From: Candidatus Saccharimonadota bacterium
GTDB lineage: Bacteria > Patescibacteriota > Gracilibacteria > UBA1369 > 2-02-FULL-48-14
Direction: 5' to 3'
Length of the DNA stretch: 32,000 nucleotides
Assembly: GCA_016699145.1 (NCBI GenBank)
Contig: CP064962.1
Span: 1,050,001-1,082,000, forward strand
This document shows, piece by piece, positions 1 to 31,579 of the stretch. How positions within the stretch are numbered: position 1 is the first letter of the stretch; every line of letters begins with the position of its first letter. A program made the translations under genes and the position numbers. The notes below the pieces were generated by a model. It was not told where the DNA came from, did not search any database, and worked only from the letters and a program-made list of their open reading frames with translations.

Positions 1-612
1 AAATGCGCTGTCAAAACAATTCGTACAATCCTGACTGTATTTTAAATTATAACAATTTTGACAATCCACACATTGATAAAGCAATTCAGATTGCAAAACA
101 TAGGAGCAGTCCACGCAAGATCGGGAGTGTTTAATGACATTTCCATAAAGACAATCTTCATTGAAATCAGAATCAAAAACCAAGTAGCAGTTTTTGTTAT
201 TCCCTGCATAGTTCGTGTAAACACAATTCATCTCAACAATATCACTCGCAGACACTACGTGAGGAAGAGGCACTTGCCGTAGAAGTTCATCGAATTGTTC
301 AAAAAAAGGTCGATTGAAATCGAAGTCTTTCCCATACGAAAGAGGATCCCAACGATCGCCCCACCACTCTTTTTGATCGTAGACCTTATAAGGTTTTTCA
401 GGTGAAATATTTGAAATAAGTTCACGTCCCGTCAGATCACATTTACGATGGTAAAGATTGCGTTCATTACGAAAAATCATTCGTCGTCTCATGCGTTCTT
501 CGGGGCATAAGGTGGGTAAAGGCACATCTATCTTGGCATAAAAAGCCTGATCTTCATCAGTGATGATAAAGGGTTTCGTACTAACCCGACAAATTTTTTC
601 TAATGCAGTCAT
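1..612 (-). CDS. Cys-rich paralog family protein P0, N-terminal 204 codons only (rest lies beyond the window start)
   Basis: My own minus-strand translation from ATG 612-610 stays open to base 1: MTALEKICRVSTKPFIITDEDQAFYAKIDVPLPTLCPEERMRRRMIFRNERNLYHRKCDLTGRE...FDFNRPFFEQF...CVDCQNCYNLKYSQDCTNCFDSAF. It is colinear with the N-termini of P1-P6. ATGA overlap with the P1 stop (609-611). Absent from the ORF track because it runs off the edge. Confidence 0.85.
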   Translation of the reverse strand, partial: MTALEKICRVSTKPFIITDEDQAFYAKIDVPLPTLCPEERMRRRMIFRNERNLYHRKCDLTGRELISNISPEKPYKVYDQKEWWGDRWDPLSYGKDFDFNRPFFEQFDELLRQVPLPHVVSASDIVEMNCVYTNYAGNNKNCYLVFDSDFNEDCLYGNVIKHSRSCVDCSYVLQSELLYQCVDCQNCYNLKYSQDCTNCFDSAF

Positions 613-2255
613 GAATGAAAAAGTTGAGTGTAACAATGATTGCAATAAACTTGCTCGTCCTTCTCAAAAGGCACACGAATCCCTTGCTTGCAGTGTATGC
701 AATTTCGGTCCCACAGTCGCCTTGGATTTCTCAACTTCAACCGATCCAAATAACGTTGTTGAGGGGCCCGTCTCGGCAGTGCAAGCCCCAGACTTTTATA
801 AAGGGTCAGTTCTTGAGGGATGATCTTATAAAGCTTTCCTGAAACCTCGCATTTCAAGATTTGTTTACTGAAATCTTCAGGCACATCTTGAATGGAATCA
901 GGGATAGTTATAAAAGCCCCCTGATAGTTGTCCTCAGGCTTTTCATCAATCCAATTGTATCCTCTGGCCTTTGCCTCCTCAGCAGTCAGCGGGAAGTATT
1001 CTTGTGCCAGTGTTTCATTGTAAGCGAAGGGGCTCAGCGTGGCTGGAAAAAACTCACCCCATTCACCCGTCTTTTTCATCTGATCAATGATTTGTGCTTT
1101 CAACGTTTCAAACTCCTCTTTGGAATATTCTGTATTGAGAATACAGTACTCACTTCGGTGAACTCCCACACAAGCAAAAAGATTTTTGCTGCTTTGGCAT
1201 AAATCTACATAAAGGCTGTCGCTCACATCGTAAGACACGTTTCCGAATTGAATATTCACACTTCGATTGCATCCATGACAGTTGTATTGAAGTTCACAAG
1301 CAAAGGCAGATTCATAAGTATCAAAACAGTCTTTGGCATAGCCTGTTTCATAGCAATAACGACAATCTTGCGAATAAATAACGTCGAAAGAATCAAAAAC
1401 GTTTTTAGACTGATAAATGCAATCTCCCGTACAATTTTCACTGATCAAAATAACAGATTGTTTCGGCGACTTTTGAATCATATTTTCGTACTCGTCCACG
1501 AAGTGTCGCAATTGTGCATAGGACCCCAAATTCACAGTTTTCATAAAGGCTTCATACTCTTCTTTAGTGAGTTGCTTGTTATAAACGCAGTAACTTTTTC
1601 GAATGAGGCCATTGCACATGAAAGAGTCGCTACAGTTGTAGCAGTTGTAAAGAAAAGCAGAATTAGAATTGTTGTCTGAAAGGAAATTATAGAAAGAGTG
1701 ATAGCCTCCGACCACATACTGACATTCGTAACACAGCTCACTTTTTTCAATATTGTAAGAGTCCGCGCAGTCTTTATTTTGAATCATCCATTTGGAATAA
1801 TAGACATTTTCGCAATAAGAAGAATCCACACATAAATAGCAGTTCCGATTGTTCTCTGCATGGTTGGTGTAGTCACAATTTTCACTGTTTTTTTGGACCA
1901 AAGCCAAGCGAGGAACTTTCAATTGCAGTTCTTTCAACTGTTCAAAAAAAGGACGCGAAAAATCAAAAGCTTTTCCAAATATTTTTGCATCCCATTTGTC
2001 TCCCCACCAGCATGAATTGCAATAAACGACGTAAGGCGAGTCTGCACTGTACATCGAAATGATTTGTTTCTCACAAAGGTCACATTTTCGATGATAGAGG
2101 GTGCGTTCATTTCTAAAACTGAGGCGCAATCTTTGCCTTTCATCTGGACACAAAGTCGGCAATGGCACCTGCATTTTCGCATAAAATGCTTGATCATAAT
2201 CATCGATCAAAAATGTTTTCCCACTCACTCGACATGTTTTTGTAATCGGAGTCAT
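609..2255 (-). CDS. Cys-rich paralog family protein P1 (~548 aa), function unknown
   Basis: ORF 609..2279. Start moved to the internal ATG at 2255-2253 (MTPITKTCRVSGK), which overlaps the P2 stop as TGATG. Carries the conserved family blocks: FYAKMQVPLPTLCP, RNERTLYHRKCDLC, FDFSRPFFEQ, TGEWGEFFP, and the C-terminal QELTLYKSLGL..RNPRRLW.RNCIHC. Confidence 0.85.
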   Translation of the reverse strand: MTPITKTCRVSGKTFLIDDYDQAFYAKMQVPLPTLCPDERQRLRLSFRNERTLYHRKCDLCEKQIISMYSADSPYVVYCNSCWWGDKWDAKIFGKAFDFSRPFFEQLKELQLKVPRLALVQKNSENCDYTNHAENNRNCYLCVDSSYCENVYYSKWMIQNKDCADSYNIEKSELCYECQYVVGGYHSFYNFLSDNNSNSAFLYNCYNCSDSFMCNGLIRKSYCVYNKQLTKEEYEAFMKTVNLGSYAQLRHFVDEYENMIQKSPKQSVILISENCTGDCIYQSKNVFDSFDVIYSQDCRYCYETGYAKDCFDTYESAFACELQYNCHGCNRSVNIQFGNVSYDVSDSLYVDLCQSSKNLFACVGVHRSEYCILNTEYSKEEFETLKAQIIDQMKKTGEWGEFFPATLSPFAYNETLAQEYFPLTAEEAKARGYNWIDEKPEDNYQGAFITIPDSIQDVPEDFSKQILKCEVSGKLYKIIPQELTLYKSLGLALPRRAPQQRYLDRLKLRNPRRLWDRNCIHCKQGIRVPFEKDEQVYCNHCYTQLFHS

Positions 2256-2287
2256 CAGTAGATCGTTTTTAAATAACACGCTTCACA
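2231..2287. repeat. Gene-junction repeat, copy at the P2/P1 junction (57 bp, 2 mismatches to 5586-5642)
   Basis: gacatgtttttgtaatcggagtcatcagtaga(tc)gtttttaaataacacgcttcaca compared by eye with the other two junctions. Confidence 0.8.
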
Positions 2288-3913
2288 GAATATCTTTTCA
2301 GGTTGATCCGGTACAAAACTGCTTTGCAGTTGAACTCCGCATGCGCCACAACTGCGCAGCCACAAATGGCGTGGATTACGTTTGGCCAAACGAGCTTTAT
2401 ATCGACAGTCAAAACAATTCACAGGAGCAGCCACACCCAGGTTTTTATAAAGGGCCAACTCTTGTTTGATCACTTTGTAACTCTTCTCACACGTGTAACA
2501 ACACAAAATTTGACTCAAAAGGGTCTCATCCGTGTCTTCAATGCGTGCAGGAGGACTCAATTTTGGTCCCGAATAACTATAATTTTTCTCCTCATCCTTC
2601 CACTTCAAACCGAGAGCCAGCACCTGTTCCCGTACGAGAGGAAAGTATTCCTGTGCCACCGTTTCATTGTAAGCAAAGTAGGCGAGAGATGGAGGGAAAA
2701 ACTCGCCCCATTCACCGGTCTTTTGCATATGCTCAATGATGCGCGGAACCAGAGCTTCATACTCCTCTTTAGTGTATTGCTTGTTCAGAATGCAGTAGCG
2801 CTGTTTGTTCAGTCCAATGCATCCAAAAAGATCCTGAGAATTGTTCACGCAGTAGTGGCAGTAACGCAGGTTGCTCACATCGTTCCAGCATGAATCGGAA
2901 AAAGCGACATTGTAAAAATTATTCCCGCACAAGTGGTTTTCGTAGCCAAGCTCACCCGTGATGCCCCATGCATAACAATCCTGACAGTCACGGCTGTTGT
3001 GGAGCCAGGTGCAGTAGCGACAGTCTTCCAGATGGGTACAGTCATAGGAGTCATAAACATTCTTTGAAAACGCGATATGGTCTCCAGTGAAAGATTCATT
3101 CTGTACACCTGCATAATACTTTTGTGGACATTCCATTTTGAGTGCTTCAAAAGAGTTTTTGGCTTCCAAAAAACGTTCAGGATTTTCGCGAATTTCTTGA
3201 ACTCGTTGCTCATAATCCTCTTTGCTCAATTGTTCGTTGAAAAGACAGTATTCTTTGTTCACGAGCGACACACACCCAAAACAATTTTTACAAGATCGAC
3301 AGTTGTACATGAGAGTCGAATCGCTGCAGCTCTGACAGTTTTGCGAATAGGTCAATCGGTAGCAGGAATAACAGTCGATGCATTCATAACACAGCTCGCT
3401 GTCAAAGATGAAAAAGCAATCCAGCAAATTGCGAGAACGGTGCAAGTAAGTGCAGTAGTAGCAGTCTTCATTGTCGTTACCGGCAAAAACAAGGTAACAA
3501 CTTTTATTACGAGAAGTAAGGTTGGTGAAATCACAATTCTCATTGTCTTTTTGCAGGTTCAAAGCCAAGACCGGCACTTGCTTTTTGAGTTCACCAAACT
3601 GCTCAAAGAAAGGACGAGAAAAATTAAAATCGCGTCCATAGTTCAAGGCATTCCATTTGTCGCTGTAAAAGCAAGGCGGACAATAAACTTGAATCGATTC
3701 ATCTTCATAAATAGACAAAATTTCCTTCTGACAAAGGTCACACTTCCGATGATAGAGTTTTCGCTCATTGCGCCACATGAGACGCCTTCGCATGCGCTCT
3801 TCTGGACACAAAGTCGGCAATGGCACCTGCATTTTTGCATAAAACGCTTGATCATAATCATCAATCAAGAACTCTTTCCCACTCACCCGACATATTTTTG
3901 TAATCGGAGTCAT
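2255..3913 (-). CDS. Cys-rich paralog family protein P2 (552 aa), function unknown
   Basis: ORF 2255..3937. Start taken at ATG 3913-3911 (MTPITKICRVSGK), overlapping the P3 stop as TGATG. I count 43 Cys. No signal peptide or TM segment. Confidence 0.85.
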   Translation of the reverse strand: MTPITKICRVSGKEFLIDDYDQAFYAKMQVPLPTLCPEERMRRRLMWRNERKLYHRKCDLCQKEILSIYEDESIQVYCPPCFYSDKWNALNYGRDFNFSRPFFEQFGELKKQVPVLALNLQKDNENCDFTNLTSRNKSCYLVFAGNDNEDCYYCTYLHRSRNLLDCFFIFDSELCYECIDCYSCYRLTYSQNCQSCSDSTLMYNCRSCKNCFGCVSLVNKEYCLFNEQLSKEDYEQRVQEIRENPERFLEAKNSFEALKMECPQKYYAGVQNESFTGDHIAFSKNVYDSYDCTHLEDCRYCTWLHNSRDCQDCYAWGITGELGYENHLCGNNFYNVAFSDSCWNDVSNLRYCHYCVNNSQDLFGCIGLNKQRYCILNKQYTKEEYEALVPRIIEHMQKTGEWGEFFPPSLAYFAYNETVAQEYFPLVREQVLALGLKWKDEEKNYSYSGPKLSPPARIEDTDETLLSQILCCYTCEKSYKVIKQELALYKNLGVAAPVNCFDCRYKARLAKRNPRHLWLRSCGACGVQLQSSFVPDQPEKIFCEACYLKTIY

Positions 3914-3987
3914 CAGTAGACGGTTTTTAAATAACACGCTTCACACAGCACTTTTTCAGGACGGTTTGGAGCGTAGGTGCTTTGAAT
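3895..3987. repeat. Gene-junction repeat, copy at the P3/P2 junction (93 bp, identical to 5592-5684)
   Basis: tttttgtaatcggagtcatcagtagacggtttttaaataacacgcttcacacagcactttttcaggacggtttggagcgtaggtgctttgaat is present base for base at both places. Confidence 0.9.
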
Positions 3988-5610
3988 CGCAGAAGAACAT
4001 TCTGCACAAGACCGAGGCCACAAGTAACGAGGATTTCGAAGGGCACCACGGTTCAACAGTCTTTGTTCGGGACATATTAAAGGAACCGGCAAATTCATTT
4101 TTCGATAAAAAGCCAACTCTTGCGGGATCACTTTATAAAGTTTTCCGGTCTTGCTACAGCGAAGGATTTGCTTTGTTAGCCCATCCTCTACATCTAGAAT
4201 ACTTTCTGGGATTTTAAGCGCTGGGCCTATGTATTCTTCTTTAGCTTCGTCTTTCTCATACCAGTTCCAACCTTTGGCGAGTACTTGGTCTTTGCTGAGA
4301 GGGATGAGCAAGTGAGCGCTCGTTTCGTTATAAGCATAAGGAGAAATAGAGGAAGGGAAGAACTCGCCCCATTCACCCGTTTTTTGCATGTGCTCGATGA
4401 TGCGGGCCACCATGACGTCGTATTCTTCTTTAGTGTACTGCTTGTTCAAAATACAATATTGGCTTCGGCGCAGACCAAAACAGCCAAAGCAGTCCTTCAC
4501 GGAAGGATAACAGTCATCGCAGTAAATCAAATTAGACACGCCTTGCCAGCAATGATCGCTGAACAGCAAGTTGTAAGCATTCGCCCCACAGGCGTTGCAT
4601 TCATACAAGAGTTCAGCATTGACCCCCCACATGGAATAATCGTAGCAGTACTTCGCTCCATTCAAAATTTCATAGCAATACGCACAACCCTCCAAGTTTT
4701 TGGAGTCATAACAAAAACGAGAATCCTTGCACTGTACCAAGTTGTCTCCAGAAACATCTTCGCATTGAGTGATGTAAGTGGCACGATGAGGCATTGAGAG
4801 CCGAACTGCTTCACTTTGGGCACGGATTTCTTCAATGGATTTATTTGTAAGTTTTAAAGATTTCATTCGCAGCTCCCATTCTTCTTTGCTGAGCGGTTGA
4901 TTGAAGTAGTAATACTGTTTTTGAACGAGTCCATGGCATCCAAAACAATTCTTGCAGTTCTTAAGGTCGGATGAAAAATAACAATCCACACTATTCTCAC
5001 AGTTTTGGCAGAACATACATCCATAGCATGCGAAAAGGCTTACGCCTTCATAGCAGAGCTCGCACTGCTGAATGCGCAGACAATCCACACAATCCTTACA
5101 AGTATTTGCACCTCGTGTGTAGTAAACATCTTCATTATTTTCGGCTTGAGAGAGGAGGTAGCAATTCTTTGAATGATCGGCACAGTTTGTGTAGTCGGAA
5201 TTGACGTCCAGCTGAGGATCCACAAAGAGATTGTGATGAGGCACTGCATCGCAGAGCTCCTTGAACTGCTCAAAAAAAGTACGCTTGAAATCGAAGTCTC
5301 TACCATAGTCTCTAGGATCCCATTTGTCCGAGAGCCATTCTGTGATGTGGTAAACAGGGTAAGGAGATTCGGACTTATGCATAGAGACCATGGATTTTCC
5401 AGTCATAGCACATTTAGCGTGATAGAGGGTTCGTTCGTTTCTAAAGCTTAAACGACGTTGCCAACGACACGTTGGACAAAATTTTGGCGTGGGTATTTGG
5501 AATTTTTTCCCAGCAAAATTAGGACTCATTCGCTCGTAGAAAGCTAGATCTTCTTCATAAACCGTGAAACCAAACTGACAATTTAGACATGTTTTTGTAA
5601 TCGGAGTCAT
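3913..5610 (-). CDS. Cys-rich paralog family protein P3 (~565 aa), function unknown
   Basis: ORF 3913..5634. Start taken at ATG 5610-5608 (MTPITKTCLNCQFG), overlapping the P4 stop as TGATG. The last ~25 codons are identical at the DNA level to those of P4. Confidence 0.85.
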   Translation of the reverse strand: MTPITKTCLNCQFGFTVYEEDLAFYERMSPNFAGKKFQIPTPKFCPTCRWQRRLSFRNERTLYHAKCAMTGKSMVSMHKSESPYPVYHITEWLSDKWDPRDYGRDFDFKRTFFEQFKELCDAVPHHNLFVDPQLDVNSDYTNCADHSKNCYLLSQAENNEDVYYTRGANTCKDCVDCLRIQQCELCYEGVSLFACYGCMFCQNCENSVDCYFSSDLKNCKNCFGCHGLVQKQYYYFNQPLSKEEWELRMKSLKLTNKSIEEIRAQSEAVRLSMPHRATYITQCEDVSGDNLVQCKDSRFCYDSKNLEGCAYCYEILNGAKYCYDYSMWGVNAELLYECNACGANAYNLLFSDHCWQGVSNLIYCDDCYPSVKDCFGCFGLRRSQYCILNKQYTKEEYDVMVARIIEHMQKTGEWGEFFPSSISPYAYNETSAHLLIPLSKDQVLAKGWNWYEKDEAKEEYIGPALKIPESILDVEDGLTKQILRCSKTGKLYKVIPQELAFYRKMNLPVPLICPEQRLLNRGALRNPRYLWPRSCAECSSAIQSTYAPNRPEKVLCEACYLKTVY

Positions 5611-5684
5611 CAGTAGACGGTTTTTAAATAACACGCTTCACACAGCACTTTTTCAGGACGGTTTGGAGCGTAGGTGCTTTGAAT
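5592..5684. repeat. Gene-junction repeat, copy at the P4/P3 junction (93 bp, identical to 3895-3987)
   Basis: Same string as 3895-3987. It spans the first 6-7 codons of the downstream gene, the TGATG overlap and the last ~25 codons of the upstream gene. Confidence 0.9.
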
Positions 5685-7271
5685 AGAAGTTTGACATGCA
5701 TCACAATGGCGAGGCCAAAGTTTGCGAGGATTGCGTTGGGACATCCGTTGCACGTGGCGCTCTTCCGGACAAAGCAAAGGCACTGGGAGCTGCATTTGGC
5801 GATAAAAAGCCAATTCTTGAGGGATGACGCGGTACAGCTTGTCGGTTTTTTTGCAACGCAAAATTTGCTTTAAAATAGCATCATTCACGTCAGAAATCTT
5901 AGCTGGAACCTGCACATCGGGGCCTTTATAATTACTCGACTCGTCATCTTCCTTCCAAGAGTAGCCCATGGATTGAGCCTCTTGCGGGCTGAGAGGGTAA
6001 TAAATGGAAGCCACCGTCTCGTTGTAAGCAAATGCACTCATTGTGCTAGGGAAGAACTCGCCCCATTCACCCGTTTTTTGCATGTGCTCGATGATGCGCG
6101 GAACCAGAACTTCGTACTCTTCTTTGCTGTACTGCTTATTCAAAATGCAGTACGTATTTTTCTTCAGCCCTACACACCCAAATAAATTGGATGAGAACAT
6201 ACAATTATCACAGTACATAAGCTCATCCACTCCCCAACAGGTGTTTGAAAAAAGAACTTTTCGAGCACGATCACCGACGGTAATGGAATCATAAATCAGC
6301 TCAGCTTTAAAGCCCCACACATCATAGTCGTAGCAATCTGTAGCTCCATTGCTGAGGTTGCTGCAAAAATGACAATCACGAACGTCCTGACAATCGAAGG
6401 CAAAAGAACAGTCCTTGGTATTTTTTAAGTAATCCCCTGTGCTGTTTTCATTATTCATATTGTGATCCGCCTTGAATGAAAAATTTAAAAACCATTGTCG
6501 CACTTCTGCCTTTAGTTTTTCCCTGTTCCCGTGCGTATCCAAGTTAAAAGCTGCTATGGTTGCCTCATACGCTTCTTTACTCAGGGGTTTATTAAAAAAA
6601 TAATATTCTTTATTTCGTAATCCCACGCTGCCAAAACAATGGTTACAATTTCTACAATCTCTCAAAAAAGCGCTATCTGTACAATTCTGGCAATCTTGCG
6701 AATTAAACAGTTGATAACATTTTTCACAGTCCACGCATTCGTAACACAGTTCACATTCATAAATTCGAAGACAATCCATTGAACTTTTTGAATACTTACT
6801 GAGATGACTATAATAAACACTTTCTGAGCAATCCGAATCAAAGACTAAATAAGAATCCTTCATGTAGGAAGTTTGATTCACATAATCCGAATTCGTACTA
6901 GAAGCATCATTACAAAGACTGGGATGAGGCGTTGCATAAAGCAGCTCTTTGAACTGCTCAAAAAAGGGACGGTTAAAGTCAAAAGAACGACCTGAGTCAA
7001 GGCCACTCCACCGATCTCCCCACCAGCAAGGATTGCAATAAACTTTGTAAGGAGAACCGGGCCGATACATCGTGATGATTTGTTTTCCACAAAGTTCACA
7101 CTTCCCATGATAGAGGGAACGCTCATTCCTCCAGAGCATACGTCTGCGCTGACGATCTTCTGGACAAAGGGTCGGTAAGGGCACTTCCATCTTCGTATAA
7201 AAAGCCTGATCCACTTCCTCAATGGAAAAGCTATTTTTACACTCCCTACAAGCCTGATCGATAGTTGCCAT
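5610..7271 (-). CDS. Cys-rich paralog family protein P4 (~553 aa), first gene of the head-to-tail array
   Basis: ORF 5610..7286 begins with GTG. The first ATG is at 7271-7269 (MATIDQACRECKNSF). Same block structure as P1-P3. Confidence 0.85.
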   Translation of the reverse strand: MATIDQACRECKNSFSIEEVDQAFYTKMEVPLPTLCPEDRQRRRMLWRNERSLYHGKCELCGKQIITMYRPGSPYKVYCNPCWWGDRWSGLDSGRSFDFNRPFFEQFKELLYATPHPSLCNDASSTNSDYVNQTSYMKDSYLVFDSDCSESVYYSHLSKYSKSSMDCLRIYECELCYECVDCEKCYQLFNSQDCQNCTDSAFLRDCRNCNHCFGSVGLRNKEYYFFNKPLSKEAYEATIAAFNLDTHGNREKLKAEVRQWFLNFSFKADHNMNNENSTGDYLKNTKDCSFAFDCQDVRDCHFCSNLSNGATDCYDYDVWGFKAELIYDSITVGDRARKVLFSNTCWGVDELMYCDNCMFSSNLFGCVGLKKNTYCILNKQYSKEEYEVLVPRIIEHMQKTGEWGEFFPSTMSAFAYNETVASIYYPLSPQEAQSMGYSWKEDDESSNYKGPDVQVPAKISDVNDAILKQILRCKKTDKLYRVIPQELAFYRQMQLPVPLLCPEERHVQRMSQRNPRKLWPRHCDACQTSIQSTYAPNRPEKVLCEACYLKTVY

Positions 7272-7358
7272 AAAATAATCTATCACTTATGGCAAGTATA
7301 GCGGAAAATGTAAAAATATACCTAATAAAAGCTTGAAAAAAGTCATACAGCAGATTAG

Positions 7359-8960: not shown

Positions 8961-9896
8961 GTTTTGTAATCAATAGCTTTGCATCACTTCGTTAGGAGTT
9001 AGCATGTGAAGACCCATGTGAGGACGTTCAAAATTGTAATAGTGAAGGAAGTCAGGGATTGCTTTTTTTGTAAGCCTCTAAAGTCTTTGGGACTCGGGAG
9101 AGGCATTCCTCCTGGATGGTTCTGTTGAATCTCTCCACATAGGCATTGTCTGTGGGTGTTCGTACTCTTGAATGCCTGTGCTGAATTTCATTAGCTACAA
9201 GCGTTTTAGTGAGCCACTTGGAAAACTCACTTCCATGGTCTGTCTGGATCATTTTAAGTTCAAAGGGCATGTCTTCTTGTGAGTGCTGAATAAACTCCCA
9301 ACTTGCGTGGGTTCCAATCTTCATCACCGGCATAGCAGAGGCCCATCTGCTGCACACGTCCAGCATAGTGTATACATAAAGTCTGTCATAATAAGGCCCA
9401 TCCACAATCGTGTCTATTTGCACCAATATGCCTGGTTTTTCAGGCCGCGGTCTTTCCTCATACTGGTGCCACTTCTTCCACTTGCTGTATTTGGTCATCT
9501 CGTTCCTTTTGAGTGTTCTCTTCACACTGGAAAGACTCACTTCGTAGCCATCTCTTTCCAGAAAATAGTGAATCACTTCTGCACACCGCTGGTACTTGAG
9601 TCTGTACTCTATGACTTTCTGCACTGTCTCTGCAGAAAGCTCACTGGGGTGCGAATGGGGACGTGAGCTTTCTGTGGGAATGGTGTGGCCATAGTTATTG
9701 CCTCTGAGCTTTTCCACCCACCGCACAATGCTGCTTTGGTTAAAACCTGTGTGTCTGGCCACTTCGCGTGTGCTCCAGCCTTTTTCCAGAACTAACTTTG
9801 CTGCCTCCATTCGCACCCGAGGCAGATGGGGATTTTGTGTGTATGCCATGTCCATATCTTTGCACAGGGGTGATGCAAAGCTATTGAACCATTACA
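8961..9896 (-). mobile_element. IS481-like insertion sequence nested inside the IS4-like transposase gene (~936 bp)
   Basis: Imperfect 27-bp terminal inverted repeats with an 18-bp perfect core: caatagctttgcatcac at 8971-8987 and gtgatgcaaagctattg at 9870-9886; outer end TGTAAT/ATTACA. 6-bp duplication GGGTCT at 8955-8960 and 9897-9902. Ends are uncertain by a few bp. Confidence 0.8.
9052..9855 (-). CDS. IS481-family transposase (HTH plus rve/DDE integrase core)
   Basis: 267 aa. N-terminal HTH (GWSTREVARHTGFNQSSIVRW). DDE contexts LVQIDT, MIQTDHGSEF, DNAYVERFNRTIQEE. Confidence 0.8.
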   Translation of the reverse strand: MDMAYTQNPHLPRVRMEAAKLVLEKGWSTREVARHTGFNQSSIVRWVEKLRGNNYGHTIPTESSRPHSHPSELSAETVQKVIEYRLKYQRCAEVIHYFLERDGYEVSLSSVKRTLKRNEMTKYSKWKKWHQYEERPRPEKPGILVQIDTIVDGPYYDRLYVYTMLDVCSRWASAMPVMKIGTHASWEFIQHSQEDMPFELKMIQTDHGSEFSKWLTKTLVANEIQHRHSRVRTPTDNAYVERFNRTIQEECLSRVPKTLEAYKKSNP

Positions 9897-11996: not shown

Positions 11997-12222
11997 TATA
12001 TTCAGCCTAGCAAACATTTCAGGGATTTGTCAGGAGCTTTTCGGTACAATCTGAAATGCTTAACCTTTACACATGAAAACAAGATGTTCACGTTGGACCA
12101 CGCGAAAGGAAGCCAAAGATAAAAATGGCTACCGTCATCCCCAAGTCAAAAGGCAAGAGTTAAAAATGAATCAAGAAGAGCAGGAGGTTTACTTGAAGGG
12201 TAATTTTCAGTATCTTAAATCC

Positions 12223-12483
12223 ATGCAAAGTTCTATCCTCAATTATTTAGTTTTCTTCAAAGAAGAACCCGAAGGAGGTTTTACAGTTCTTGTGCCAAGT
12301 TTGCAAGGATGCGTTAGCTACGGAGAGAATCTGGAAGAAGCCAAAAGAATGGCTGAGGAAGCTATATTGCTTTACATAGAAGATTTGATTGAATCTGGAG
12401 AAGAGGTGCCTTCCGATGAAAAAGCTTTTTCCTTGTCCATAAAAATCACCAAACCAGCCAAGAGAAAAGAACAATATGCCTAA
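12223..12483 (+). CDS. hicB: HicB-family antitoxin (UPF0150-type)
   Basis: YLVFFKEEPEGGFTVLVPSLQGCVSYGENLEEAKRMAEEAILLYIEDL matches the HicB N-terminal domain pattern. Overlaps hicA by 8 nt. The start is uncertain (ATG at 12223, 12166 or 12073). Confidence 0.7.
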   Translation: MQSSILNYLVFFKEEPEGGFTVLVPSLQGCVSYGENLEEAKRMAEEAILLYIEDLIESGEEVPSDEKAFSLSIKITKPAKRKEQYA

Positions 12484-21894: not shown

Positions 21895-22581
21895 TTAAGA
21901 AGCGATTTTATTGAGAGAGCGGACAAAAAGAATACCCTCTTCCTTTTCCAGATCCAAGAGCTCCTGAAGGGTCAGCGCTTTTTCAATGCTGAGCACGCTG
22001 AGCATTTTGTTTTCAAAAGCAAGATAAGAACTTTGCATGTTCACGATTCGAATCTGTTTTGCGCCCAAAAATCCAGTGATTTTCGCAAGCATTCCTGGTT
22101 GATTTTCATTCTCGATTACTAAAGTGAAGTACTGCTCCGCACTGTTCCCGGTCAAATGCACGTCGAAACCGTTGATTTGATTGATGACCACGCTGCCTCC
22201 TCCAATTGAAGAGCCTATGATTTCCATCTTTCTTTCCGCATTTTCCAAAGTGATTTTCACAGTATTGGGATGGTATTCCGGGCCCAAATTTCCAGGTTCA
22301 AAACTAAAATCCAAGCCCTTATCTTGAGCGATTTCAAAAGAATTTTTAATGCGTGCATCATTCGGTGGAAACTTCATAATCCCGCCCAGCAGAGCGCGAT
22401 CCGTGGCGTGGCCTTTATAGACTTCACCAAAGGAACCGTGCAGGAAAAAGTGAACGCGCGTGGGAGTAGCATCAAAAATCGCTCGAGCAAATTGCCCAAG
22501 TTTCGCCGCCCCAGCTGTATGAGAACTGGAGGGGCCCACCATGACCGGACCTGCAATGTCGAAAAGAGTGAATTGACCCAT
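21895..22581 (-). CDS. sdaAB: L-serine dehydratase (iron-sulfur type), beta subunit
   Basis: N-terminus FDIAGPVMVGPSSSHTAGAAKLG plus a C-terminal ACT-like domain. 228 aa. Confidence 0.8.
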   Translation of the reverse strand: MGQFTLFDIAGPVMVGPSSSHTAGAAKLGQFARAIFDATPTRVHFFLHGSFGEVYKGHATDRALLGGIMKFPPNDARIKNSFEIAQDKGLDFSFEPGNLGPEYHPNTVKITLENAERKMEIIGSSIGGGSVVINQINGFDVHLTGNSAEQYFTLVIENENQPGMLAKITGFLGAKQIRIVNMQSSYLAFENKMLSVLSIEKALTLQELLDLEKEEGILFVRSLNKIAS

Positions 22582-22592
22582 ATCGTAGCAAA

Positions 22593-22621
22593 ATTATGAA
22601 AGAAATCAGATTTTATTGCAA
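22593..22621 (-). promoter_or_regulatory. Candidate promoter TTGCAA-17-CATAAT, 11 nt before the sdaAB ATG (leaderless-type)
   Basis: The reverse complement of 22582-22625 reads ttgcTTGCAAtaaaatctgatttctttCATAATtttgctacgatATG. Confidence 0.4.
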
Positions 22622-22695
22622 GCAAATCGGTTCTATATTTCAGATTGGATTAAATCATTTCAAAACAATTTCAAACTAACGTCCACTGGAGAAAC

Positions 22696-22724
22696 TTGTG
22701 CAAACTTCAAAGGCTGGGTATATT
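22696..22724 (+). promoter_or_regulatory. Promoter of ncRNA copy A: TTGTGC-17-TATATT
   Basis: Hexamers at 22696-22701 and 22719-22724 with an exact 17-nt spacer. The upstream block GTCCACTGGAGAAACTTG is shared with copy B. Confidence 0.55.
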
Positions 22725-22730
22725 AATATG

Positions 22731-23070
22731 AAACGTCAATAACAAAAACACAAAGGCCCCTTTGGGGCAAAGTTTCTCTCACCTATTAAGGCTTCTGCTT
22801 TACGCTGGCGGTCCCGATTAGACCGCCCATGAGACTTAGACTCTCACTCTCCACCTTGTGGATCCCGTTTCCGCTCCCTGCTTCGGCACAGCGGCTGGAC
22901 TCCACGTCCAAGGTAGCCTCGGTCCGGCCCTAAAGTCGACCAAAGTACAGCAGATGAAAAATAAAAACAGAAAGGATTCATCGCCTTTCAAGAACCGGCC
23001 TCGCGTTCACCTACATCCTCGCACTTTCATAGACAGTGTCGCCCTGGATCGAATGCAAAGCCGGTTTTTT
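22731..23070 (+). ncRNA. Unclassified structured RNA candidate, copy A (~340 nt)
   Basis: No conserved reading frame. Shares with copy B a 5' ATAACAAAAACACAA block, a CCCC/GGGG hairpin, and a ~295-nt core (22781-23074). Core hairpins: GGCGGUC/GACCGCC (22807-22827), CCAC/GUGG (22851-22861), CCGCU/AGCGG around a UUCG loop (22871-22894). A long 3' helix AACCGGC/GCCGGUU plus GCGUUC/GAAUGC (22993-23066) ends in a U6 tract. Confidence 0.6.
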
Positions 23071-23118
23071 ATTGCAGCGCTAGAGGCTGGAAAACACCGG
23101 GATTTTACTTAAATTTAA

Positions 23119-23141
23119 TTTTACCGGGATTCCCGGTAAAA
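23119..23141. repeat. Perfect palindrome TTTTACCGGGA-t-TCCCGGTAAAA between the two RNA copies
   Basis: 11-nt arms, read directly. Related ACCGGGA/ACGGGTA motifs lie at 23096-23103 and 23148-23156. Confidence 0.5.
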
Positions 23142-23223
23142 TGGAAACGGGTAAATCCGCAAGTTTTAAAGGTTAAATATGGCTAATACAAAACAATTTC
23201 TAAGCAAAGTCCACTCTAGAAAC

Positions 23224-23252
23224 TTGAACGAACAGTAAAGGCTTGTTACAAT
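23224..23252 (+). promoter_or_regulatory. Promoter of ncRNA copy B: TTGAAC-17-TACAAT
   Basis: Hexamers at 23224-23229 and 23247-23252 with a 17-nt spacer. Confidence 0.55.
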
Positions 23253-23258
23253 GACACG

Positions 23259-23653
23259 AATCGTTGATAACAAAAACACAACGTTTCACGCCGACCTTTC
23301 AAAAGCGCATCCGCGCAACGCAAAGTGCCCCTCACGGGGTAAAACAAAAACAAAAAGAAATTCACCTATTAAGGCTCTGCTTTACGCTGGCGGTCCCGAT
23401 TAGATCGCCCATGAGAGACAGACTCTCACTTCCACTTTGTGGATCACGCTTCGTTCCCTGCTTCGGCACAGCGACTTCGATTCCACGCCAAAAGTAGCCC
23501 CGGTCCGGCCCTAAAGTCGACCAAAGTACAGCAGATGAAAAACAAAAACAGAAAGGGTTCATCGCCTTTCATGAAACCGGCCTCGTATTCATCATTGATC
23601 CTCGCACTTTCATAGACAGTGTCGCCCTGGATCGAATACAAAGCCGGTTTTTT
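23259..23653 (+). ncRNA. Unclassified structured RNA candidate, copy B (~395 nt)
   Basis: Core 23363-23659 aligns with 22781-23074. Differences include compensatory pairs (see findings). The extra ~55 nt near the 5' end contains a GCGC...GCGC hairpin. Ends in GCCGGUUUUUU. Confidence 0.6.
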
Positions 23654-23681
23654 ATTGCTCAAAAAACTTCCATCGAATCAA

Positions 23682-23756
23682 TCAGTAGCGAAGACTGAGC
23701 TTCTTGCCTTTCTTTTGGAGGCGTTTTTTGCGAGCAATTTTCTTTTTCTTGTACAT
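23682..23756 (-). CDS. Possible 24-aa Lys/Arg-rich micro-protein (MYKKKKIARKKRLQKKGKKLSLRY)
   Basis: My own translation (below the ORF-track length cutoff). ATG start, TGA stop. A possible TTGCTT-17-TAAGAT promoter lies upstream. No homology evidence. Confidence 0.2.
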   Translation of the reverse strand: MYKKKKIARKKRLQKKGKKLSLRY

Positions 23757-23896
23757 AAAAGGGGATAATGTCGTCGCCTATCTTAAAGCCACAGCCCCAA
23801 AGAAAGCAACTGGAGAGCGCCAGGGAGTAGGTTTTAAAAGTGCAGTTGACGAACGGTAGAAAAGTTGTAATAATAAATTCTTATTTTAGCCATCCA

Positions 23897-25536
<1,640 letters not shown>

Positions 25537-30660: not shown

Positions 30661-31579
30661 ATGTCTTCTCAAAGTATTCTTTGGATCATATTCTCGGTCA
30701 TCGTGATTGGATTTTTAGTGGTGGATCTAGGTTTCCTAAATCGAAAGGCGCATAAGATCTCTACAAAGTCGGCTCTATTGCAGACTGCTTTTGGGTGAGT
30801 ATTTCACTTGCCTTTGCTGCCTTGATCTTTACGATGCTTGGACATATCAAGGCGGTGGAGTTCTTAAGTGCATATTTGACTGAAAAATGCTTTCCGTGGA
30901 CAACTTATTTGTCATCCTGCTCATTTTCAGTTTCTTCAAACTAGATGAAAAATACCATCACAAGGTTTTGTTTTGGGGAATCATGGGGGCCGTGGTATTC
31001 AGAGCTCTTTTCATTGGAGTGGGTTCTATTATCATTGAGCAATTCAGTTGGGTGCTTTATATCTTCGGGGCCATTCTTTTGTACACAGGTATTAAATTAT
31101 TTACAGGGAAAAAAGAAGAGCATGTAGACTTTGAACACAACGCAGTCGTAAGATACGCGAAGAAATTTTTAAGGTTCACCCCTAATGTTCACGGTGGACA
31201 CTTTTTGGTTAAAGAAGCGGGTAAGTGGCATTTTACGACCATGTTCATGGTTCTGCTATTGGTGGAGACCACGGACATTATTTTTGCGGTGGATTCGATT
31301 CCTGCCGCTTTTTCCATCACTCAAGACTCTTTCATCGTCTTCACGTCAAATATTTTTGCAGTGATGGGCTTGCGTGCCCTCTTCTTCCTTGTTGAAAACA
31401 TTCTCCACAAGTTTCATCATCTGCAAAAAGGTCTCTCCTTCATCCTCATTTTCATTGGTTTGAAAATGTTAGGAGGGATATTCCATTTCCATCTTTCACC
31501 CGTTATTTCATTTATTGTAATCTTAAGCGTCTTAGTCATGTCCTTGGTGCTTTCGGTAATTTTCCCAAAGAAGATTTAG
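30661..31579 (+). pseudogene. TerC-family integral membrane protein, interrupted by two 1-nt homopolymer frameshifts (T4 at 30789-30792, A5 at 30883-30887)
   Basis: Frame 1: MSSQSILWIIFSVIVIGFLVVDLGFLNRKAHKISTKSALLQTAF. Frame 2: (W)VSISLAFAALIFTMLGHIKAVEFLSAYLTEK. Frame 3 (ORF 30887..31579): MLSVDNLFVILLIFSFF...VLFWGIMGAVVFR. Together these reproduce the TerC consensus, including YL.EK.LSVDN.FV. Confidence 0.75.

Follow-up and report, generated by a model that had tools for sequence, protein, structure and literature searches.

The small RNAs (sRNAs) CrcZ, CrcY and CrcX of Pseudomonas, which sequester Hfq and Crc, are about 400 nt long, have their own promoter and terminator, carry several unpaired AAnAAnAA-type motifs and occur as paralogues in some genomes. 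It is for sponges of this type that the AAnAAnAA or (A-R-N)n rule for the distal face of Hfq has been established. Here we describe two tandem RNA genes with the same set of traits, RNA A and RNA B, in a 32,000-nt stretch of contig CP064962.1 (hereafter the window) from an uncultured, genome-reduced groundwater bacterium of the Peribacteria, within the candidate phyla radiation (CPR). They very probably represent a real family of stand-alone structured RNAs, read from the plus strand of the window. CrcZ differs from them in that there is no sequence or structural homology and no Rfam match, and in having no conserved five-way junction; it is also sigma-54/CbrB-dependent, whereas the Peribacteria genes have sigma-70-like promoters. 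The link to carbon catabolism is physiological for the Crc RNAs, whereas here only the gene neighbourhood suggests one.

Other described RNAs share parts of this profile. raiA, OLE, ROOL and GOLLD likewise have complex multi-helix folds with conserved junction nucleotides and were recognized by covariation as stand-alone orphan genes, but none of their Rfam models matches the Peribacteria RNA, which is smaller than OLE, ROOL and GOLLD, so far seen in one Peribacteria clade only and marked by (CAAAAA)n tracts of its own. Tandem paralogues are common among base-pairing sRNAs such as PrrF1/PrrF2 and OmrA/OmrB; these pairs and GlmY/GlmZ are also adjacent genes, each with a promoter and a terminator, that have diverged mostly at the 5′ end, but they are 100–200-nt seed or decoy sRNAs of Proteobacteria, without homology to the much more structured Peribacteria RNA. 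Bacterial RNase P RNA (type A) is similar in length, in its strongly conserved unpaired nucleotides and in the 3′ words AGAUGAA, ACAGAA and CCGGC, a short likeness to the 3′ part of Escherichia coli M1 RNA that we take to be coincidental. The Peribacteria RNA, by contrast, has no P4 or CR-I, follows another helix topology, ends in a terminator, occurs in one or two copies per genome and obtains no covariance model (CM) score as RNase P RNA. With EutX/Rli55 the likeness is in concept only, namely a sensing domain joined to protein-binding sites, acting in trans from beside a related catabolic operon; the Peribacteria RNA has no adenosylcobalamin aptamer, no ANTAR hairpins and no internal conditional terminator. 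The CPR makes up a very large, uncultured share of the diversity of bacteria; its members have tiny genomes in which few regulators can be recognized, and to our knowledge almost nothing has been described of their regulatory and structural RNAs. Literature searches turned up no paper on non-coding or structured RNA in Peribacteria or Peregrinibacteria, and the Peribacteria genome paper is silent on such an RNA.

Two tandem RNA genes

RNA A (~22731–23070; ~340 nt) and RNA B (~23259–23653; ~395 nt) are paralogous units that lie one behind the other and are 85% identical by column over their whole pairwise alignment. Their cores (22780–23070 in A, 23363–23653 in B) each measure 291 nt, are 89.8% identical with 6 gap columns, and both end in GCCGG followed by T6 (23060–23070 and 23643–23653). 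The 5′ region of RNA B is ~55 nt longer because it contains two extra hairpins and an extra tract. An initial annotation, made from the DNA letters of the window, had proposed two structured RNA units at this site. The upstream boxes, promoters, AACAAAAACACAA box and shared core that it described are all present where it had placed them and the division into two units stands, but the U-tracts stop at 23070 and 23653, a few bases inside the ends it had set at 23074 and 23659. On the plus strand, the two units have minimum free energy (MFE) z-scores of −3.6 and −3.7 relative to shuffled controls.

Each gene is preceded by a putative sigma-70-type promoter. That of RNA A (22662–22724, plus strand), read by eye from the sequence, comprises the upstream boxes AAAACAATTTC (22662–22672), GTCCAC (22681–22686) and AGAAACTTG (22690–22698), a −35 element TTGTGC (22696–22701), a 17-nt spacer and a −10 element TATATT (22719–22724). 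The promoter of RNA B (23190–23252, plus strand), picked up by a consensus promoter scan, has the same three boxes within 23190–23226, followed by TTGAAC (23224–23229), a 17-nt spacer and TACAAT (23247–23252). The two 75-nt promoter blocks are 73% identical. In relatives the layout reads TGAAACAATTT (around −65), GTCCAC (around −48), AGAAACTTGA holding the −35 element, a 17-nt spacer, TATATT or TACAAT, and GAYATGAAACG around +1; it is kept upstream of most close copies, including those away from sdaAB, the gene for the L-serine dehydratase beta subunit that neighbours RNA A. The predicted limits of both transcripts (22731–23070 and 23259–23653, plus strand) were set from the −10 box and a conserved AUGAAACG at the start and from the U6 tract at the end. 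Between the RNA A terminator and the RNA B promoter lies a perfect palindrome, UUUUACCGGGAUUCCCGGUAAAA (23119–23141), which resembles a further terminator, possibly one that works in both directions, or a site for protein binding.

A five-way junction with unpaired A-rich tracts

The RNA starts with a 5′ hairpin, continues through a small variable hairpin (P0) into a five-way junction and closes with the P6 hairpin and the long hairpin of the terminator, P7; two or three unpaired tracts of the (CAAAAA)n or AAnAAnAA type are interspersed among the helices. The 5′ stem of RNA A pairs GAAAC (22731–22735) with GUUUC (22772–22776) and closes a loop that holds the A/C-rich tract AACAAAAACACAA (22741–22753) and a hairpin, GGCCCCUUUGGGGC (22755–22768). 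In RNA B the 5′ hairpin GAAUCGUUG/CAACGUUUC (23258–23287) has the loop AUAACAAAAACA, the AACAAAAACACAA box lies at 23269–23281, and a second A-rich tract, AAACAAAAACAAAAAG, is found at 23342–23357. Relatives form this stem as GAAACG/CGUUUC, with the strands swapped to GAUUUC/GAAAUC in locus L090 and the stem lengthened to GAAACAUC/GAUGAUUUC in L091; across the family, a CAAAAACA tract is found in the loop, in some cases together with inserted hairpins, and a second A-rich tract comes after the 5′ hairpin. All of these features, and those that follow, are on the plus strand.

The five-way-junction core, delimited by RNAalifold, a CM of the core (R1) and covariation counts, spans 22795–22953 in RNA A and 23377–23534 (P1–P5) in RNA B. 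It is closed by P1 (CUGCUU-UAC/GUA-CAGCAG in the family; CUGCUUUAC at 22795–22803 with GUACAGCAG at 22945–22953 in RNA A) and bears four arms, P2–P5. In RNA A these are P2 (GGCGGUC, 22807–22813, with GACCGCC, 22821–22827), P3 (GAGA/UCUC), the long arm P4 with its UUCG-capped stem (22876–22893; CGCU-CCC-UGC-UUCG-GCA-C-AGCG in the family) and P5 (GGUCCGGCCCUAAAGUCGACC, 22921–22941). The near-invariance of P5 (GGUCCGG-CCUAAAG-UCGACC) means that it gains little support from covariation. Downstream of the junction is an A-rich, unpaired linker of the form (A-A/G-N)n, AUGAAAAAUAAAAACAGAA in RNA A (22954–22972), which is nearly invariant in 18 aligned copies. It is followed by P6 (GAAAGG-AUUCAUCG-CCUUUC, 22970–22989, from per-sequence folds) and by P7 (22993–23070), an intrinsic terminator made of the interrupted hairpin AACCGGCC...GCCGGUU and then U6. 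The 3′ domain of RNA B (23535–23653) repeats this order, with the linker AUGAAAAACAAAAACAGAA at 23535–23553, P6 at 23551–23570, P7 at 23575–23647 and U6 at 23648–23653. P7 is a 25–30-bp interrupted hairpin throughout the family, comes in two sequence types and is followed by about 4–7 U in nearly every copy.

The A-rich tracts are unpaired in both MFE and consensus folds, and GAAAAACAAAAACAGAA is almost invariant among copies that are just 50–60% identical overall. Junction strands and loops are also almost invariant (UGG, CCCAUGAGA, UCCCUGCUUCGGCACAG, GGUCCGGCC.UAAA and CCAAAGUA), and the helices around them covary. All 23 aligned cores, three from distant relatives included, keep CUUU/AAAG in P1, the UGG that precedes P2, GUG/CAC at the base of P4 and some of P5. 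The distant homologues (loci L004, L006 and L095) retain CAAAAACAAA(AA)-type tracts, that is (CAAAAA)2–4, which in L095 amount to 18 nt of AAAAACAAAAACAAAAAC, (AAAAAC)3; they also keep the terminator and a hairpin resembling P6, with UUGGUC as its loop; apart from this, hardly any sequence beyond the core can be aligned. Among the unpaired features of the family, none is better conserved than the (CAAAAA)n tracts.

Covariation supports the fold and the strand

Applied to 18 copies, RNAalifold returned 63 pairs, 39 of them with compensatory double changes. We then examined the core in a CM-based alignment of 21 distinct sequences and 44 pairs. Standard pairs filled 96.5% of the cells, compared with 35–47% when the partners were slid by 1–3 columns; both sides had changed at 26 of the 44 pairs, and none of 500 column shuffles matched any of the observed covariation measures. 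These counts bear out the earlier proposal of a stand-alone structured RNA in two diverged copies, and the three helix differences on which it had drawn (CCGCU/AGCGG to UCGUU/AGCGA, GCGUUC/GAAUGC to GUAUUC/GAAUAC, and GACCGCC to GAUCGCC) proved exact base for base. Beyond the core, the P6 stem covaries in four versions according to per-sequence folds (GAAAGG/CCUUUC, GAAUGG/CCAUUC, AAAGCA/UGCUUU and GAACG/CGUUC), and P7 covaries too, one of its pairs being G–C in 8 sequences and A–U in 8. A scan of about 20 sequences for pseudoknot or tertiary covariation yielded phylogenetic noise alone, with no consecutive run of non-nested covarying pairs.

The wobble pairs are strongly asymmetric, with 86 G·U or U·G cells against 11 A·C or C·A cells, and therefore the plus strand of the window is the RNA strand, the orientation that the initial annotation had deduced from G·U pairs. 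When the alignment is read as the minus strand, pairing falls from 96.5% to 88% (~8.5 points). The UUCG tetraloop, the U-tract and the promoter all agree with the plus strand.

No codon periodicity was found, the variable columns being spread 49/40/46 by position modulo 3, and no reading frame stays open across the copies, whose longest open reading frames (ORFs) change frame and strand from copy to copy. Frame-breaking indels are common, with 126 gap runs of 1–2 nt among 13 close copies. The lack of a conserved frame, first noted for the two window copies, thus holds across the family. Public gene calls nevertheless place hypothetical proteins of 56–146 aa, without Pfam domains, over the element (L001 5473–5760, L092 3053–3602 and L088 2561–2752); these ORFs are probably annotation artefacts. 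The existence, strand, boundaries and fold of the RNA were thus either demonstrated or read directly.

Distribution and paralogue history

To place the element in relatives, we gathered contigs encoding SdaAB relatives, scanned GTDB species genomes with an SdaAB alignment and made one exact-pattern scan of JGI metagenomes. nhmmer found the element in 13 of 13 related genomes (SdaAB 70–100% identical), in 20 copies: two each in the window, L001, L002, L003, L085, L093 and L094, and one each in L086, L087, L088, L090, L091 and L092. All 20 score 110–178 bits with R1, among them the cores of RNA A (22790–22957; 172.1 bits) and RNA B (23372–23538; 177.5 bits), both of which nhmmer matched as well. 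The homologue search and CM that had been suggested as checks therefore place the element in every close relative examined, with strong covariation. R1 also recovered weak, distant homologues in L095 (30.5 bits, E ~5e-8, a rough value), L006 (21.9 bits) and L004 (21.4 bits), which are Peribacteria with SdaAB just 52–55% identical. There the match lies directly upstream of sdaAB and divergent from it, though no enolase lies close by and the other flank is not the same.

Elsewhere, R1 found no match in 74 sdaAB loci of other phyla (647 kb), nor beside sdaAB in L005, L007, L008 and L096–98, where the gap of ~130–290 nt is too short to hold the RNA. The JGI scan returned 5 stretches and no more, the GTDB scan with sdaAB only one close species representative, and the viral contigs scanned for the element gave 0 matches. 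Judging from these searches, the family so far looks confined to part of the Peribacteria.

In a distance tree, an ‘a’ group of copies proximal to sdaAB (L002a, L085a and L094a) separates from a ‘b’ group that contains L002b, L094b and both window copies. L001 carries two 100%-identical copies flanking a 274-aa gene. Together, the tree grouping and the identical L001 copies point to an old duplication that gave rise to two paralogue lineages, followed in some genomes, that of the window among them, by gene conversion or renewed duplication. One or two paralogues per genome in two old lineages is compatible with dosage or sub-functionalization. The ORF sandwiched between the L001 copies (L001 4624–5448, minus strand in the locus; 274 aa) has no significant Pfam match, NleF being sub-threshold at E 0.0026, and its position suggests that the RNA gene repeats recently mediated a duplication or an insertion. 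Relative to the initial annotation, the comparative data add the Peribacteria host, the sdaAB link including three distant relatives, the two old paralogue lineages and the conservation of the tracts.

Comparison with known RNA classes

A search of the whole window with the 4227 CMs of Rfam 15 gave 0 matches at the gathering threshold. At E ≤ 10, the region 22500–23900 returned chance matches only, a C/D snoRNA and a viral pseudoknot among them, and at E ≤ 1 the diverged copies returned nothing relevant. ARAGORN reported no transfer-messenger RNA (tmRNA) and no tRNA in the window. The initial annotation had been unable to assign the element to a known family, and these searches agree.

We also compared the RNA with individual classes by their defining features. 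tmRNA was rejected, there being no tRNA-like end and no tag ORF, with a terminator hairpin and U-tract at the 3′ end instead. RNase P RNA, for which we looked for a P4 formed by CR-I (GAGGAAAGUCC) and CR-V (ACAGAA.CCGGCUUA) within a P1–P18 type core, was rejected for want of a model match at E ≤ 10, a CR-I box and a P4 helix; AGAUGAA, ACAGAA and CCGGC recall RNase P by coincidence, since the partner of CCGGC is the 3′ strand of the terminator and this pairing shows G–C/A–U covariation. A five-way junction with separate hairpins is unlike the ~180-nt rod with a central bubble of 6S RNA, whose model does not match, and signal recognition particle (SRP) RNA was likewise set aside, with no model match and with CCUAAAG, not a GNRA domain IV, as the loop of the GGUCCGG-containing P5. 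Riboswitch, T-box and cis-leader classes were rejected: sdaAB and enolase both lie on the other strand, so that the RNA is on the wrong one to be an sdaAB leader, and the terminator looks constitutive, with no alternative pairing. Omega RNA, bridge RNA, retron msr/msd, DRT non-coding RNA and tracrRNA were rejected as the neighbour genes they require are absent and viral contigs gave no match. The motif that marks the CrcZ-like class was found, in that AACAAAAACACAA, AAACAAAAACAAAAAG and GAAAAACAAAAACAGAA are unpaired A-rich (A-R-N)n tracts. By these sequence comparisons, the RNA family and its architecture appear new, within the familiar general kind of stand-alone bacterial structured RNA.

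Genomic neighbourhood

On one side of the RNA genes are sdaAB, sdaAA, a formyltransferase, a ferredoxin and pyruvate:ferredoxin oxidoreductase (POR); on the other are enolase and LexA. sdaAB (21895–22581, minus strand; Pfam) is divergent from RNA A and is its conserved neighbour. In close relatives sdaAB, or a gene inserted ahead of it, has the element immediately on its upstream side, on the opposite strand and usually between enolase and sdaAB; the linkage persists where the other flank differs. A promoter scan placed a promoter-like site for sdaAB, TTGCAA-17-CATAAT (22621–22593, minus strand), between the RNA gene and the start codon. It ends ~12 nt before the ATG, so that the sdaAB mRNA is predicted to be leaderless or nearly so, without a Shine–Dalgarno sequence (22586–22621, minus strand).

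The initial annotation had held that no plus-strand gene follows closely. A 97-aa plus-strand ORF does start at 23897, 244 nt downstream of RNA B, but it has its own promoter-like site and the stand-alone character of the RNA genes stands; tblastn found no match to this ORF in 11 related loci (L088, L090–L093 and six more distant ones). No gene for a reverse transcriptase, IscB, TnpB, IS110, Cas or other transposase or recombinase lies beside any copy, the neighbours being sdaAB, enolase, LexA, msrA, GNAT, YHYH and hypothetical proteins without a significant Pfam match.

A very basic 24-aa ORF, MYKKKKIARKKRLQKKGKKLSLRY, is present in the window (23682–23756, minus strand), L002 (4329–4403) and L094 (2683–2757), its peptide conserved in the three genomes. 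It converges on the 3′ end of the ‘b’-type RNA, 0–30 nt from the terminator, in the window and L094; in L002 it is ~600 nt from the RNA with another called gene between. The ORF has no NCBIfam match and could encode a real micro-protein, possibly nucleic-acid binding. We rejected it as an obligatory partner of the RNA, as it is present in 3 genomes only and absent from other RNA-bearing loci.

The remainder of the window contains several other features. Four tandem paralogous ORFs of 556–573 aa, overlapping by the stop, occupy 609–7286 (minus strand); of the two searched against Pfam, 609–2279 and 3913–5634, one gave a sub-threshold treble-clef zinc-finger and the other nothing, and several of the four carry CAAAAACA near their 5′ ends. 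An IS3-type transposase with a helix-turn-helix (HTH) domain and an rve integrase core (9052–9855, minus strand) and a HicB-like antitoxin (12073–12483, plus strand) each lie ~10 kb from the RNA genes. A TerC-family membrane protein is encoded at 30887–31579 (plus strand). The yybP-ykoY riboswitch often precedes terC genes; no such (Mn2+) riboswitch was detected upstream of this one with Rfam, which was empty for the whole window.

Proposed function and alternatives

As a whole, the observations are best explained by an undescribed family of structured non-coding RNA of the Peribacteria, here with two paralogous genes, the proposed mechanism being action in trans as a protein-binding RNA; we give this reading as a whole a probability of about 0.5. 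The partner, the action in trans and the physiological role we infer. What has to be explained is the near-invariance of the tracts, a junction conserved as in aptamers and ribozymes and the persistent back-to-back sdaAB–POR arrangement. The RNA would bind a protein in trans, as a sequestering ‘sponge’ or a scaffold. Its A-rich tracts may be repeated docking sites for a single-strand RNA-binding protein, given that they match the (A-R-N)n pattern read by the distal face of Hfq, as in CrcZ, and the five-way junction may add a second surface for specific recognition or, possibly, for sensing a ligand. The RNA and the sdaAB-sdaAA-POR operon stand back to back in a conserved arrangement, which suggests that the RNA is co-regulated with the breakdown of serine and pyruvate. 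Our best single guess, by analogy with the Crc RNAs and taken by itself clearly less likely than not, is a trans-acting protein-binding RNA that sequesters or scaffolds and is co-regulated in this way. Several points weigh against this proposal. Such conservation of the junction is needless for a simple sponge and points to ligand binding, catalysis or a defined ribonucleoprotein (RNP); the A-rich tracts could instead be donors of tertiary contacts or base-pairing seeds; the sdaAB linkage is absent in L005, L007 and L008 and could be inherited synteny rather than a functional link; and the CM E values of the three distant homologues are rough.

Were the tracts seeds, the RNA would be a trans base-pairing sRNA whose unpaired A/C-rich tracts or C-rich junction strands target U/G-rich or Shine–Dalgarno-like regions of mRNAs, the body providing stability. 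Its own promoter, an intrinsic terminator with a U-tail, a protective 5′ hairpin, invariant single-stranded segments and tandem paralogues, as in PrrF1/2 and OmrA/B, are all consistent with this, but its 340–395 nt and its conserved five-way junction put it far above the typical size and constraint of seed-type sRNAs. The complement of the A-rich linker is absent from the 32-kb window outside the RNA genes: the notable matches (0–3 mismatches) are the genes' own tracts, and three more at the 3-mismatch limit look like chance. Antisense targeting of the sdaAB 5′ end was rejected, as its duplexes are no better than those of shuffled targets (z −1.0 to +1.8) and the interacting regions are not conserved. 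We regard base pairing as unlikely. Invariant junction strands and loops amid covarying helices are, in turn, a pattern typical of riboswitch aptamers and ribozymes, and the junction might be a trans aptamer tied to serine or pyruvate in the manner of EutX/Rli55, or a new ribozyme core; the adjacency to sdaAB in the three distant relatives, despite their differing other flank, fits such a role. Yet the RNA lacks an expression platform and any alternative terminator or anti-terminator, models of known aptamers and ribozymes do not match it, ~20 sequences resolve no tertiary covariation, and nothing indicates a ligand or substrate. A ligand-sensing or catalytic RNA is decidedly unlikely.

A housekeeping RNA (RNase P, 6S, SRP or tmRNA) so divergent in this CPR lineage that the Rfam models miss it would account for a size like that of RNase P RNA or tmRNA and for an element that all close relatives carry at the same place, behind a strong promoter. 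It is very improbable: none of the four classes scores at E ≤ 10 in the window copies or at E ≤ 1 in the diverged copies, ARAGORN is empty, CCGGC covaries with the terminator strand where a P4-like helix is lacking, and there is no GAGGAAAGUCC box, bubbled rod, GNRA SRP domain IV, tRNA-like end or tag ORF. Among relatives the locus may have two diverged copies, one copy or none, which is unusual for an essential RNA. The position of the element in single-copy genomes, exactly between enolase and sdaAB with both on the opposite strand, together with terminator-like hairpins that can be drawn on the minus strand as well, raises the possibility of a minus-strand leader of the sdaAB operon or an element of the enolase 3′ untranslated region. 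On that strand, however, the 86 G·U cells become A·C mismatches and pairing drops as given above, the UUCG tetraloop, U-tract and conserved promoter read on the plus strand, sdaAB has its own promoter-like site, and RNA B and the copies parted from sdaAB (L001 and L088) keep a full promoter and terminator, which leaves a cis element barely plausible. Least credible of all is that the locus is no RNA gene of its own, being a degraded or unrecognized protein gene, a mobile-element remnant or a guide RNA (omega RNA, bridge RNA or retron non-coding RNA), as the hypothetical ORFs called over the element, for example L001 5473–5760 and L092 3053–3602, and the identical L001 copies around a 274-aa gene might suggest. 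The absent codon periodicity, the frequent 1–2-nt indels, the lack of a frame open in all copies, neighbours that are housekeeping or hypothetical genes with none for RT (reverse transcriptase), IscB, TnpB, IS110 or Cas, a chromosomal position fixed across genomes and viral contigs without a match all speak against it.

The RNA described here is a candidate for a new Rfam family, and its clear boundaries make it a concrete target for metatranscriptomics, for structure probing and cryo-EM, and for binding studies. Its recognition also corrects public annotations, as spurious hypothetical ORFs cover the element in several assemblies. The five-way junction, the near-invariant nucleotides and the one or two paralogues kept in a 1.3-Mb genome imply a function important enough to survive genome reduction. 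In a more far-reaching and quite unlikely form, the RNA would be a new class of riboregulator, in which the junction senses a metabolite or binds a specific protein and controls the availability of the (CAAAAA)n docking tracts, as a global switch for amino-acid and pyruvate fermentation that is co-regulated with sdaAB–POR through a divergent control region common to both; more boldly still, the junction would be the core of a new ribozyme or RNP peculiar to Peribacteria. If the riboregulator reading is true, it would mean an RNA-based global switch in genome-reduced bacteria of the CPR.

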